Assembly: GCA_014905635.1 (NCBI GenBank)
Contig: JABVCE010000011.1
Span: 868,001 to 932,000, forward strand
Length of the DNA stretch: 64,000 nt
Direction: 5' to 3'
DNA from: Scenedesmus sp. PABB004
Lineage: Eukaryota
The position numbers and the translations under genes were made by a program. This document shows positions 13,901 to 19,900 of this stretch, one piece after another. The stretch's first letter is position 1. The number at the start of each line of letters is the position of its first letter. The notes under the pieces were generated by a model, which saw only the letters and a list, made by a program, of their open reading frames with translations, was not told the origin of the DNA and made no database searches.

Positions 13901-16900
13901 GCTTGAGGTCGTAGTAGCGCTCCCACGGCAGGTCCTGCGCGCGCGTGTGTGTGTGTGTGTGTGTGTGTGTGTGTGTGTGTGTGTGTGTGTGTGTGTGTGT
14001 GGTGGTGTGATGGTGGGGGGGGGGGGGGGGGGGGGGGGGGCAGTGAGAGAGGGTGGCGGGGTGAGAGGTGGGTGGGTGGAGGTGGGTGGGTGCAGGGCGC
14101 GCCGGCGCCGCGGCGGCGCGGGGGGCGGCGTCGTCGCGGCGCGCCTTCTTCTCCAGGCGCGACAGCAGCTCCGGGGGCAGGCCCTTGAACTGGCGCAGCG
14201 GGCTCTGGCTCGCCCACATGCGGTGCGTGACCTGGCGGCGCGGGCGGGAGCGGGCGCGCGGGCGTGAGCGTGTGGTGGCGTGTGCAGGTGTGGGTTGGGT
14301 GTGTGTGTGTGTGGGGGGGGGGGGGGGAGAAGAGAGAGAGAGAGAGAGGCACAGAGAGGGAGGGAGAGAGAGAGAGAGAGGGGAGCGGATGAGGCGCGGC
14401 GCAGCAGGCGGCGCACCTCCTTGCACAGGTTGAGCGCCTTGGTCGTCAGCCCCGCCCAGCCGCGGCGCAGGCAGATCTCAAACAGGCAGCGCATGAGCCG
14501 CCCCGCGCTCTGGGTGACGTAGACCATGTCGCTCGCGAGCGCGAGGCCCTCGAGCTTCAGGTTGCTGATGTACGCCTGTCGTGGTGGTGGTGGTGTGCCG
14601 GCGGCGCGGCGGGTGTGGGTGGGCGGGTGTGGTGTGGGTGGGTGGGTGCGTGGGTGTGTGGGTGTGGGTGGGTGGGTGTGGGGCGGGGGCCAGGCGGCGG
14701 CAGCTCGCGGGGTCAAGGGAGGGTGGCAGAAGCGAGAGGACGGCTGAGGCACGAGCCCCCCCCCCCACCACCACCACACACACCCACACACCCACACCCA
14801 CACCCACACAACACGCGCCTGCATGAGGACGTTGATCTTGGCGCTCGGCTCGTCCAGGCTCTCCTTGACCGGCACGGGCACGCGGTCGATGAGCTTGGCC
14901 AGCTCCAGCTTCTCCTCCTCGCGCACGATCATGTACCTGGGTGGGGTTAAACGGGGAGGGGCGGCGGGGGTTTAGGGGGTTGAGGCGAGGGTCCGACACA
15001 CACAGGGTTCAGGGGTAAGAGAGAGAGGGCCGGGCAGGAGGACGTCGCCCCCCCCCCCAGCAGCGTGCGCGCCGCCCCGCCCCTCCCATCCACAGCGGCC
15101 GCGGGCGCAGCGGGCGCGGGCGCGGGCGCGTCGCGCACTTGAACTCGTCTGCGAGCGAGAAGAGGCGCAGCAGCTCGATGTCGCCCATGGTCGGCTTGAG
15201 GTGCCCCGCGAAGGCCGCGAGCGTGGTGTGGGTGATGTAGTAGTGGCTCGCCACGCGCCCCAGCTCGGTCGCCTGGAACGCGCCCGTGCGCCGGTCGTAC
15301 CTGGGCGCGCGGGGGAGGGAGGGGTGGGGTGGGAGGGCAGGGAGGTGGGAGGGGCGGGGAGGGCGGCGGGCGCGGCGCGGAGCGGGGGGCGGGGGTGAGG
15401 CGGCGGCGCCGGGCGCAGCACGCTGGAGCCAGGCCCAGCGGCCGCGCGCGGCGGCGCCGGCGCTTGCGCCGCGCGAGCCCGCCAGCCAGCACCAGCGCCA
15501 GCGCGCGCGCGGCGTCACCGTATGAGGTTGTGCTTGTCCAGCAGCAGCGCGGCCGAGTGCGCGAGGTCGAGCCGGTGGTCGCGCAGCAGCGGGTCGGCCT
15601 CGAGCGCGCCGAGCGGCACGCCGTACAGCGCGGGCGAGCGCAGGGAGCGGACGTAGAGGTAGGTGTAGCCCAGCCACGTCGCCGCGTCGGCGAGGTTCTG
15701 CGCAGAATGGATGAGCAGGGGGCGGGGCGGGAGCGGGGGTGGGAGGGCGGGAGTGGGGTCAGGGCAGCCGAGAGGACAGCGGCCGCCCCACCACCCCAGC
15801 CGCCGCCCGCGCGCGGCCCGCGGCCCGCGGCGCGCGGCGCGGCGCGCCTGCACTGTGCCGAGCACGATCTCGGCGTTGAGGTTGTCCGGTATGGTGCCCA
15901 CGTACTGGCTCTCGATGGGCAGCTGGGTGTTGAAGAGGCTGAGGTAGAACTGCAGCTGTGCGTGGCCCGTGAGGATGATGCCCTCGCCAAAGGTGTCAAA
16001 CTGGGGGCGGCCTGTGGGGTGTGGGTGGGTGGGTGTGTGGGTGTGTGTGTGTGGGTGTGGGTGGGTGTGGGTGTGGGTGTGGGCAGGGGAGGGAGGCAGC
16101 AGGGGTCAGGCGCCCTCGCGCGGGAGCGAGGGTGTGAAGGTGCGAGGGTGGAGCAGCGGCGAGGGGTGCGCGGGGGCGGCGCGGCGGCGCGGGGTGCGTG
16201 CGGTGCGCTCACCTGCGCGCCCCATCATCTGCATCATGTCCTGCGGGCTCAGCTCGTCCCACGCGCCCTTGACCGGGTTGTACACCTGCGCGGCGCACAC
16301 GGAGCACGCAGCACGCATGCACGCGCATGGCAGACGAGGAGGACGGGAGGGAGGTGTGAGGCGAGGCGAGGCGAGGCGAGGCGAGGCGAGGCGAGGCGAG
16401 GCGAGGCGAGGCGAGGCGGCGAGGCGAGCGTGCTGCTGCGCGCGTGCTGTGCGCGCTGTGCGTGCTGCGCTGTGCGCGCCTGCGTGCCCTTGATGATGAC
16501 GGTGTGCGCCGGGAGGTTGACGCCCCACGCGAGCGTCGCGGTCGACACCAGCACCTGCGCGCACAGCGCGCGGGCGCGGGCAGGGGGGGGGGAGACACAT
16601 GTGAGTGGCCGGGCCTGGGGCTTGAAACCCACCGATCGAAAACCGCCCCGGCTCGCCACAAGCAGTCAGCCGCCGTTCAATCTCAGCGGCGCAGGCTGAC
16701 GTCCAACGGTCTGCACTGCTGAGATTGAACGGCGGCTGCCTGCTCGTGGCTGGCGGCCAGCCGCCCTGGTCCTGCAACCCCCCCTGGTCCTGCAACAGCA
16801 CGCTCCCCCCGACGCTCCCCCCGGTGCGTGCCACGCTGGTGACGGTACAGCGACGGCAACCGAACGCGGCGGTGGCTTGTCGCGGTACCGTCACCAGCCC

Positions 16901-19900
16901 CACACGCTGCCGAGCGCAGACAGCATAGGGTAGCACATGCCGTGCATGCGCTGCGGCGCGGCCACCAGCACGGCCACGGCGCGCGGCGCCTGGTGGTGCG
17001 CGCGCTCAAGAGTCGCGGCGTGCTACACGTGGCCGCAGACCTGGAGAGCGCGCGCGCCACCAGGCGCGGCGCGCGCCGCGGCCGCGGCACAACGCACACG
17101 GGTGCGCGGCGGCGGCCAGCCAGGTCGGGCCGCAGCCCTGGGGCGCGCAGAAGCAGGGCACGCGTGACGGCGCCGCCTCCCAGTAGTCAGCGAGTGCCCC
17201 GTTCGAGGACTATGTGAGGCGGCGCCGCCATGCGCGCCCTGCCTCTGCGTGCCCGCGACCCGCGCCGCCGCCCCATCAACCCCACACACGACGCGCCAGC
17301 GCAGCGAGGCCGCAGCCTCGGGCGAGCCCGGCGCGGCGCGGTGCGTGCAGAGCTGGTGGTGCCGTAACCAGCAGCATCAGCTTTCACACGCATCAAACCG
17401 GGTACCGTCGACGGCACAGCGGCGGCGCTGTCCGCCGCGCTCGGCAGACCCGTCCCGCCGCGCGGGAGTTTGTTTTCGCAAACTCCCCCCCCCCCTCCCC
17501 CGCCCCCCAAATAGCAGACACAGAGTCATCCGCGGACTATGTGTTTGCCATCAAGTCCACGAGCGACTTTGTGTTTGCCACTTGGGACGCGGGCGAGGCG
17601 GGGGAGAGGGAGTTTGCCGCAGCGCGCGGCCACGTGCCGCGGCACGGCCGCCAGCGCGGCCACACACGGCGCGCGGCGCCTGGTGGTGCGCGCGCTCAAG
17701 TGTCGCGGCGTGCTACACGTTGCCACGCACCTCGAGAGCGCGCGCGCCACCAGGCGCGGCGCGCGCCGCCCGCAGCACACGCAAACAGGTGCGCGGCGGC
17801 CAGCCGGTCGCCGCCTCAACACCCCCCCCCCCAACAGCCCCAGCCCAGCCCCCCCCCCCCCCCCCAACACACACACACACACGCGCACACGGCCACCCGC
17901 CCACACACCCCGCCCACACGCGCACCCACCTGGATGTGCCCGTCTGCAAAGAGGTCCTCCACGAGCGTGCGGTCGACGCGGCTCATGCCCGCGTGGTGGA
18001 TCGCAAACCCAAACGGCAGCAGGTCGCGCAGCTCGCTCGTCTTGGCCGCCTCCGCCTCGGTCTGCGCGGCGCGCGCGCGCGGGCAGGGGGGCGAGGCATG
18101 GGCGCGGCGCGGGGTGAGCGCCGGCGGCGCGCGCGGGGGATGGGCCGGGGCGGGGCGCCGGCCGCGTCATGGCACAGCGCCGGCACAGCCGCGGCACAGA
18201 AACGGCGCAGCCTCGTCGCCGCGCGCGCCACACACAAAACACGCGCACGCGCGCGCGGCGCCGCGCCTGCGCCCGCGCCGCACCTGCAGGATCTCGCGTG
18301 ACGCCGAGTCGTCGCGCATGAAGCGCGCGAGGTGGTCGTTGTCGAGCGCGGTCTGCTTGAGGAAGGTCGCCGTCTTGGCCGTCTCCTTGCGCGAGTGCAC
18401 AAAGATGAGCACCTGGTGCTTGCCCGCGCAGTCGAGCACCTGCGTGTGTGTGCGCGTGTGTGTGTGCGTGTGTGTGTGTGTGTGTGCGTGTGTGTGTGTG
18501 TGTGTGTGTGTGTGTGTGTGTGTGTGTGTGTGTGTGTGTGTGTGTGTGTGTGTGTGTGTGTGCGTGCGTGTCGAGCGCCGCCCGCGCGCAGGCGCACACA
18601 TGGTGAGCCACACAGCAAACGAACCAATCAATCAGTCAAACAATCAGTCAAAACGAACCAATCAATCAGTCAAACAATCAGTCAACACACTCAACCAGAC
18701 CAGGCGCACCTTGTTGTAGCAGATCTCGTTCATCAGCTGGAAGCGCTGCAGCGGCTTCTTCACCGTCACGCCGATGTACTGCTGCGCCAGCGGGCACGGC
18801 CTGGCGCGGCGCGGGGCAGGCGGGGGGGGGGGGGGGGTGCGGGAGGTGCGGGCAGGGGCGCGAGGGGGTGAGGGCGGCGGCCGGGCGCGGGCGAGCAGGC
18901 GCGGCGGCGGGGGGGGGCCCGCGCGCTGCGGGGGCGCCGCGCCCCTGGCTCCGGCCTCGTCCGGCCGGTGCGCCCGCGGATCACGAGCGGGAGGACGAGG
19001 GCGGAGCCAGGGGCGCGCGGCCCCACAGCGCGCAGCACCCCCCCCCCCCCTCACACACACACACAGCTGTGCAGCGCAGTGCCGCAAGTGCAGGTCAGGT
19101 GCGGTCGGGTCAGTGCAATACTCTCAGTGCAATACTTTCAGTGCGATGCTCTCACCTGTATGAGTTGTCAAAGTAGAAGAGCCCCTTGTCCGGCTTGACG
19201 CGCAGGAAGGTGGCCACGTCGTCGTAGTTGGGCAGCGTCGCGCTCAGACCCACGATGCGCGTCTGCTCCTGGCTCGCCTCCACCTGGCGCAGCGTGCGCG
19301 CGACGATCGACTCCAGCACCGGCCCGCGCCCGTCGTGCAGCAGGTGCACCTGCGCGCCGCGCGCGCACGCGGGGCGGGGCGGGGCGGGGCGGGCGTGGGC
19401 GGCGGCCGCGGCCGCGGCGCGCCTCGGGCGCCCGGTCGCGGCGCTCGACGCCTGGACCCCACGCGCGCGGCCCCGAGGCCGCGCGGCGCCCAGCCGCCGC
19501 CGCCGCCGCCGCGCGAGCGTGCGTGTGCGCGTGCGTGCGCCCCCTTCCTGCCCAGTGCGCGGCGGCGGCGGCGCGGCGCGGGTGTGTTCACCTCGTCTAT
19601 GATGAGGAGTCGCACGAGCTGCGTGAACGCGCGGTCGTCGCTCTTGCGCGTGATGATGTCCCACTTCTCGGGCGTCGTCACGATGATCTGCGTCGCCTCG
19701 AGCTCGGCCTTGCTCAGGTTGACGTCGCCTGCGCGTGGGTGTGGGTGGGTGTGGGTGTGGGTGGTGTGGGCGTGGGTGTGGGTGTGGGTGTGGTGGTGGG
19801 TGTGGGTGTGGGTGTGGTGGTGGGTGTGGGTGTGGGTGGTATGGGTGGGAGGGTGGGACGGGGAAGGCCGTGCGTGTGTGGGTGGGCAGGTGGGAGCGTG

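Follow-up and report, generated by a model that had tools for sequence, protein, structure and literature searches.

The stretch of DNA considered here, hereafter the window, comprises 64,000 nucleotides (nt) of contig JABVCE010000011.1 of Scenedesmus sp. PABB004, and the element in question is a 1375-nt intron of its gene for the spliceosomal helicase BRR2/SNRNP200, in which seven hairpins follow one another. The gene occupies the minus strand between about 21.5 and 8.0 kb of the window: DEAD, Sec63 and SNRNP200_wHTH domains are found as Pfam matches in minus-strand open reading frames (ORFs) between 8.9 and 20.1 kb, about 30 exons are tiled by tblastn with the closest database protein, P0002, and the exon directly downstream of the long intron matches the human and yeast BRR2 and ASCC3/SLH1 chains of the PDB. 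The window is nuclear green-algal DNA with a G+C content of 71-83% per kb, which is above the 72.4% given as the group maximum for the Sphaeropleales in the relevant section of PMC7354681. The host alga stands near the Scenedesmaceae and is not Chlamydomonas, because the transcriptome accession prefixes of the two closest BRR2 proteins, P0002 and P0003, belong to Flechtneria rotunda and Enallax costatus (Scenedesmaceae), according to the portion of the published work in which these prefixes are assigned.

The intron is delimited by tblastn and by its splice dinucleotides. In particular, residues 456-501 of P0002 match at 18064-17927 and residues 500-525 at 16557-16480, both with 100% identity and abutting across the intron. 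The original prediction had set its length against shorter neighbouring introns, and this is confirmed: the 28 other BRR2 introns, sized as the gaps between tblastn high-scoring segment pairs (HSPs), range from 85 to 478 nt with a median of 199 nt, and the long intron exceeds the second-longest of them by a factor of 2.9. Its retention would lead to a stop codon after 37 codons (ORF 17816-18166). Two other BRR2 introns, with minus-strand starts at 16479 and 20315, apparently begin with GC instead of GT, both in the context G|GCGCGC; no GT is present near the exon ends, as defined by tblastn HSPs, at either of them. The features of the long intron and its borders are the following, where z compares the folding energy with that of shuffled sequences:

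16480..16554, minus strand: downstream BRR2 exon, by tblastn and PDB match; the next intron seems to begin with GC
16555..17929, minus strand: phase-0 GT..AG spliceosomal intron of BRR2/SNRNP200, 1375 nt
16555..16650, minus strand: hairpin-free 3' margin of 96 nt, with a C-rich tract ahead of the AG
16651..16754, minus strand: hairpin H1, 44 bp, with a perfect 21-bp core (16667-16687/16718-16738) and 40-nt arms that are 90% complementary
16826..16907, minus strand: hairpin H2, with a 14-bp perfect base (16835-16848/16885-16898); z -6.0/-5.0
16950..17127, minus strand: H3 unit, a core hairpin (16971-17084) within a duplicated unit of about 178 nt; z -7.7
17141..17254, minus strand: hairpin H4, with 42-nt arms that are 86% complementary; z -9.2
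17341..17392, minus strand: hairpin H5, short and weaker; z -3.3/-4.2
17478..17617, minus strand: hairpin H6, long and nested, about 59 bp on the transcribed strand
17636..17810, minus strand: H7 unit, a diverged copy of the H3 unit with its core hairpin at 17667-17768; z -7.9
17776..17929, minus strand: hairpin-free 5' margin of 154 nt, which includes a G17 run and is G/T-rich on the transcribed strand
17930..18064, minus strand: upstream BRR2 exon, ending ...FADGHIQ, by tblastn with P0002

The observation of a long intron packed with hairpins is thus confirmed. All seven hairpins that the original prediction had described are present at the positions given for them; the sequence itself shows the uninterrupted pairing of the H1 core and of the H2 base, H4 forms the long stem attributed to it, and H6 does extend beyond its core, as a nested fold. 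Each of the seven contains at least 21 near-perfect base pairs, and in all seven the stem-loop of the transcribed strand includes a duplex of about 21 nt in which mismatches are few, while short spacers of 38-76 nt separate one hairpin from the next. The stems are continuous, without large internal pockets of the type seen in small nucleolar RNAs (snoRNAs); a C box (RUGAUGA) was found on neither strand, nor was there an Rfam snoRNA match. Most of the hairpins differ in sequence, in agreement with what had been claimed: only H3 and H7 are alike, apart from a 20-nt stretch, matching at 17 of 20 positions, that is common to H2 and to the 5' flank of H5.

Folding of each hairpin on both strands, in comparison with 200 dinucleotide shuffles, gave z values from -3.3 to -13.3 over the 14 folds, and 0 of 200 shuffles reached the native energy in any of them; in this control, which the original prediction had proposed, the native sequences fold far better. 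Among the strongest values are those of H1 (z = -12.4 on the minus strand and -13.3 on the plus strand) and of H6 (-11.5 and -10.1, respectively). Furthermore, the whole intron, folded with a span limit of 160 nt, reaches -882.5 kcal/mol against -753.4 +/- 10.5 kcal/mol for 20 shuffles (z of about -12). Within the intron, scanning windows of 110 nt with z < -2.5 account for 10.3% on the plus strand and 9.5% on the minus strand; in the remainder of the 64 kb the corresponding figures are 0.40% and 0.30%. Twelve clusters with z <= -3 occur in the window, five in this intron, four in other BRR2 introns and three elsewhere; nine of the 12 strongest thus belong to BRR2 introns, and the long intron represents 2.1% of the window length. 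A covariance model built on H3 and H7, which behaves as a general finder of long hairpins, retrieved six of the intron hairpins among 11 distinct loci with E <= 0.04, two of the six being the sources of the model.

Strong hairpins are not confined to the long intron. Among the other BRR2 introns, 4 of 28 reach z <= -3, with the remainder lying between -2.7 and +1.6, and each of the four carries a single hairpin:

11351-11520, minus strand: single strong hairpin in a BRR2 intron, located by the structure scan
18931..19024, minus strand: single hairpin in a BRR2 intron, with 37-nt arms that are 86% complementary; intron z -5.4
20152..20259, minus strand: single hairpin occupying about half of a 222-nt BRR2 intron; intron z -8.5
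20943..21053, minus strand: single hairpin in a BRR2 intron, with 34-nt arms that are 88% complementary; intron z -3.0

Further hairpins lie outside BRR2, at 35111-35400, 33441 and 52505. In view of these and of the single hairpins in the other BRR2 introns, hairpins of this kind are made generally by the host genome. The first of these loci consists of two abutting strong hairpins (35111-35224 and 35225-35400), the second of which, with 54-nt arms that are 96% complementary, is the best hairpin of the window; ORFs of at least 130 amino acids (aa) around them (about 33.4-36.8 kb) carry no Pfam domain. A long CTG/CAG microsatellite at 30027-30120 gives a pseudo-hairpin score in every structure scan.

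The two strands of the intron are even in their folding. As had been claimed, the mismatches are mostly transitions (18 of 26 in the gapless arms), and those that would give G-U pairs number 7 on the plus strand and 11 on the minus strand. The minimum-energy folds contain 25 G-U pairs on the plus strand and 27 on the transcribed strand, and by neither measure is there a G-U bias toward the transcribed strand; the summed folding energy is also nearly equal on the two strands. Such symmetry would be expected from decaying DNA palindromes. As a gauge of origin in place, the skew in arm composition does not discriminate, the background introns being too variable.

This evenness bears on the reading that the original prediction had placed first, namely a genuine polycistronic precursor of small RNAs, in which a Dicer-like enzyme would cut the seven stems from the BRR2 pre-mRNA or from the excised intron and the products would load Argonaute. 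We regard it as less likely than not, but as a serious rival; its products would be microRNA (miRNA)-like or hairpin-derived small interfering RNA (siRNA) species. The long, near-perfect stems within a transcribed intron, with at least 21 near-perfect base pairs per hairpin and short spacers of the range given above, are what such a precursor would offer, and Chlamydomonas provides precedents in the reported parts of PMC4817775 and PMC10226591. Against it stand the G-U pairs without preference for the transcribed strand and the presence of similar single hairpins in other introns; moreover, dense Dicer substrates in the pre-mRNA of an essential gene would be costly. Searches for known RNAs did not add support: Rfam at gathering thresholds gave no match over the whole window, and the best sub-threshold match, found on both strands, scored 49.7 bits against a threshold of 168. 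The sub-threshold matches are to generic miRNA-hairpin models and reflect shape alone, because for each matched hairpin the scores are about equal on both strands. No Dicer or Argonaute domain was found in 130 large ORFs of the window outside BRR2, although 64 kb says little on this point.

H7 is indeed a copy of H3, with an identity of 94% over 105 nt and of 87% when the comparison is extended to 182 nt. The two copies have identical arms, mismatched at the same two places, but have diverged in the loop and the flanks; the homology reaches into the flanks outside the stem, and conservation is weaker in its outer parts than in the inner stem. On the other side, no compensatory double changes are found between H3 and H7, which a conserved precursor might have been expected to show. 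The fuller form of the idea, in which BRR2 would host a functioning polycistronic cluster of six or more Dicer-substrate hairpins, mostly unrelated to one another, with H3 and H7 as paralogous precursors of one mature small RNA, is held to be less probable still. It is the clustering of the hairpins beyond chance and the conservation profile of H3/H7 that lead us to rank the precursor second among the explanations.

Two other accounts of the H3/H7 repeat were considered and set aside. An element resembling a long terminal repeat (LTR) or a terminal-repeat retrotransposon in miniature (TRIM), with H3 and H7 as direct repeats 690 nt apart, is judged unlikely in view of the fuzzy repeat ends and of the palindromic units; the purine tract nearby is one arm of H6. 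An old 690-nt tandem duplication, with which a few weak C-rich matches at the 690-nt spacing would agree, was rejected since a global alignment of H2-H3 with H5-H7 shows only the H3/H7 unit.

The repetition of H3 as H7 may also be seen from the side of transposition, since the hairpins could have entered the intron as miniature inverted-repeat transposable elements (MITEs) or as pieces of a single composite non-autonomous element. The arms of any hairpin amount to terminal inverted repeats, one unit is present twice, an intron 2.9 times as long as the next longest is what insertions would leave, and in plants MITE-derived hairpins are known to give rise to miRNAs, according to the part of PMC9641971 drawn on here. 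Nevertheless, most of the marks of transposition were not found in the window. The original prediction had named dispersed copies with target-site duplications as the sign of nested MITEs, and neither was met with in the 64 kb, a weak test as it is confined to the window. In particular, neither blastn nor the H3/H7 covariance model revealed second copies of H1, H2, H4, H5 or H6 in the 64 kb, in which H3/H7 is the only repeated hairpin, and that locally. Inspection by eye of 13 hairpins gave no target-site duplications or flanking direct repeats, which old insertions could have lost, and no common termini; the hairpins are almost without mutual similarity, and no long-range terminal repeats bracket the cluster besides homopolymer runs. 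The homologous flanks of H3 and H7, with the outer parts less conserved than the inner stem, show the reverse of what a MITE would show. Eight ORFs within the intron match no Pfam family and include no transposase, and a 167-aa ORF at 16683-17186 on the minus strand has no relatives among predicted proteins, which is weak evidence. One transposon family is thus disfavoured, because there are neither flanking direct repeats nor common termini, whereas an origin in place fits the same facts, and we consider insertion of MITEs improbable.

The distribution of the hairpins within the intron brings in a further explanation, that of a selected RNA structure tuning BRR2 splicing, which would either shorten the working length of the intron or tie its removal to the supply of the helicase. 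The hairpins are absent from the first 154 nt and from the last 96 nt of the intron, the BRR2 introns as a group are rich in strong hairpin clusters, and retention of the long intron would bring in the premature stop mentioned above. On the transcribed strand, a G17 run close to the start of the intron and a C run close to its end are 87% complementary (17849-17863 and 16578-16592), and their pairing could bring the intron ends together. On the other hand, G/T-rich 5' tracts and C-rich 3' tracts are also common in other introns of the window, there is no strand bias in folding, and the exterior-loop measure of working intron length fails to distinguish the native intron from the shuffles, which pair as fully in sequence so rich in G+C. 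Of the explanations weighed, this seems the least probable.

The reading that we prefer, with a probability of roughly 0.45, is that imperfect DNA palindromes, formed at the locus itself, have enlarged an otherwise ordinary BRR2 intron about seven-fold. It is ranked first because of the strand symmetry, the unrelated units, the lack of transposon marks and the lone hairpins in other introns, and the hairpin-free outer 154 nt and 96 nt are counted in its favour as well. Each hairpin would have started as an inverted duplication, most likely through fold-back or template-switch errors in replication or repair, and one local duplication would have produced H7 from H3. Template switching is described, in the sections used of PMC10710096, of 10.1101/2021.04.15.439925 (PMC8794818) and of PMC13100816, as a route both to hairpins of unique sequence and to likeness between arms. 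The palindromes may have persisted because they lie away from the splice signals, and because an insert that folds on itself would add little working distance between the splice sites. In a genome so strongly biased toward GC, arm-to-arm correction may also slow the decay of the stems. The hairpins would then be by-products at the DNA level and not selected RNA genes, although, with a nuclear Dicer in the alga, stems in the pre-mRNA would still be cut to small RNAs as a side effect.

Some observations weigh against palindromes of local origin. The first is the concentration of the hairpins in one intron: for the 11 hairpins of the BRR2 introns (seven in the long intron and four in the others), the probability of finding at least 7 of 11 in this intron is 0.0013 when its present length is used and 3e-5 when the hairpin lengths are removed. 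Clustering above a length-proportional expectation makes an extra assumption necessary, either an intron that is tolerant of insertion or palindromes that seed further palindromes. The second is the pattern of change between H3 and H7, which differ at 5 of 128 paired columns and at 10 of 40 unpaired columns (Fisher p = 2.6e-4, in a test that has two copies to work with); in the core, which was chosen after the data had been seen, 72 arm positions are identical where, allowing for base composition, about 10 differences would be expected. Paralogous miRNA genes classically show conservation of this kind. The same pattern could alternatively result from arm-to-arm correction in a strongly GC-biased genome, an account of the H3/H7 conservation that we infer ourselves. 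Finally, the origin in place of each hairpin is a proposal drawn from the present sequence of the window.

Either outcome would be of consequence. If the hairpins are processed, the intron would be a compact natural case, in a unicellular alga, of a single essential pre-mRNA carrying many unrelated small-RNA precursors, with a bearing on the beginnings of miRNA-like clusters, and small-RNA output would be tied to the transcription and splicing of BRR2, the helicase that unwinds U4/U6. Without processing, the locus would still show how self-folding palindromes can make an intron grow seven-fold in a genome that is compact and extremely rich in G+C, providing a test case for template-switch mutation and for arm-to-arm correction.

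Orthologous genes were sought in metagenomes. In 80 of 80 loci kept, the 98-residue stretch spanning the junction is uninterrupted; the ranking favours unsplit matches, so that the result does not bear on close relatives. Among the seven most G+C-rich loci, five show BRR2 as one continuous tblastn match, a sixth (L007) has small gaps only and the seventh (L054) is split into six main-chain HSPs, with ten rows in all; in none of the seven is there an intron at the BRR2 junction. Separately, one freshwater metagenome DNA run contains 7% of the sampled words of the window sequence. Compared with positions 7500-22500, it yields 303 short contigs, of which 35 are at least 99% identical, mostly over exons, and one corresponds to 14135-14285 with no differences; over the long intron the contigs offer nothing usable, and the joints listed there look spurious. 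Because contigs with at least 99% identity to parts of the BRR2 gene occur in it, the same or a very close alga is present in the freshwater metagenome at low depth.

The other genes recognized in the window by Pfam are the following:

about 1.1-1.9 kb, plus strand: MFS/sugar transporter
about 24.2-25.1 kb, plus strand: JAB/MPN protein
about 28.9-29.7 kb, minus strand: Vps39 C-terminal zinc finger
42.4-44.0 kb, plus strand: methylene-tetrahydrofolate (THF) dehydrogenase/cyclohydrolase
50.3-53.9 kb, minus strand: Paf67/eIF3L
54.1-55.5 kb, minus strand: isoamylase C-terminal domain

In addition, positions 44774-49048 and 59713-64000 form a 4.3-kb direct duplication with 97% identity, its copies about 15 kb apart and the second reaching the end of the window; it first became visible as paired covariance-model matches of equal score.

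Several hairpins within one intron of a housekeeping gene are familiar from the intronic polycistronic miRNA clusters of animals, for example the one in an MCM7 intron. In such clusters paralogous hairpins have conserved arms and diverged loops, and they are processed by Drosha/DGCR8-type machinery and belong to conserved families, whereas the hairpins of the BRR2 intron are known from their sequence alone. Closer to the host, 9 of 18 high-confidence miRNAs of Chlamydomonas reinhardtii are intronic, and their production is independent of splicing, as described in the consulted part of Valli et al. (2016, PMC4817775), where the host introns are also said to splice still; the statement in the original prediction that Chlamydomonas miRNAs often derive from intronic hairpins is in line with these figures. 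The BRR2 intron is like these DCL3-dependent miRNAs in placing stem-loops in an intron of a protein-coding gene of a chlorophycean alga; those, however, are single hairpins documented by small-RNA reads and a dcl3 mutant, while here there are seven, recognized in the genomic DNA of a very G+C-rich relative of the Scenedesmaceae. A second Chlamydomonas case is the third intron of FRA2/BolA-like 2, expanded to about 3 kb, which in the account given in the available part of PMC10226591 holds five hairpin clusters producing small RNAs from the sense strand; this supercluster gives AGO1-associated small RNAs of >26 nt, and the length of the intron grew with the number of units. The BRR2 intron resembles it in being much longer than its counterparts and in carrying several hairpins in a row. 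The FRA2/BolA2 units, on the other hand, derive from one repeat (>70% alike), measure 60-80 nt, are imperfectly paired and are Dicer-independent, whereas in the BRR2 intron 5 of 7 units are unrelated, their size is 60-150 nt and their stems are near-perfect. Chlamydomonas therefore already offers both miRNAs from hairpins in introns and an expanded intron that holds several small-RNA hairpins, as far as these two partial sources go, and in the literature searched we found no description of a green-algal intron with a miRNA-like cluster of several families.

With plant MITEs and the miRNA hairpins derived from them, as presented in the part of PMC9641971 cited above, the BRR2 hairpins share the palindromic units of 80-180 nt in introns and the long stems, but they differ from them in that target-site duplications, a family of copies in the window and common termini are all absent. 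In these respects they are like template-switch inverted repeats and miRNA hairpins arisen de novo, which the passages used from PMC10710096 and from 10.1101/2021.04.15.439925 (PMC8794818) describe as arising in one mutational step. Those cases were demonstrated by comparison with sister lineages, whereas the BRR2 intron is represented by one sequence; what it has in common with them is that its hairpins, H3 and H7 apart, are unique in sequence and near-perfect, and that in the 64 kb they come with neither target-site duplications nor dispersed copies.

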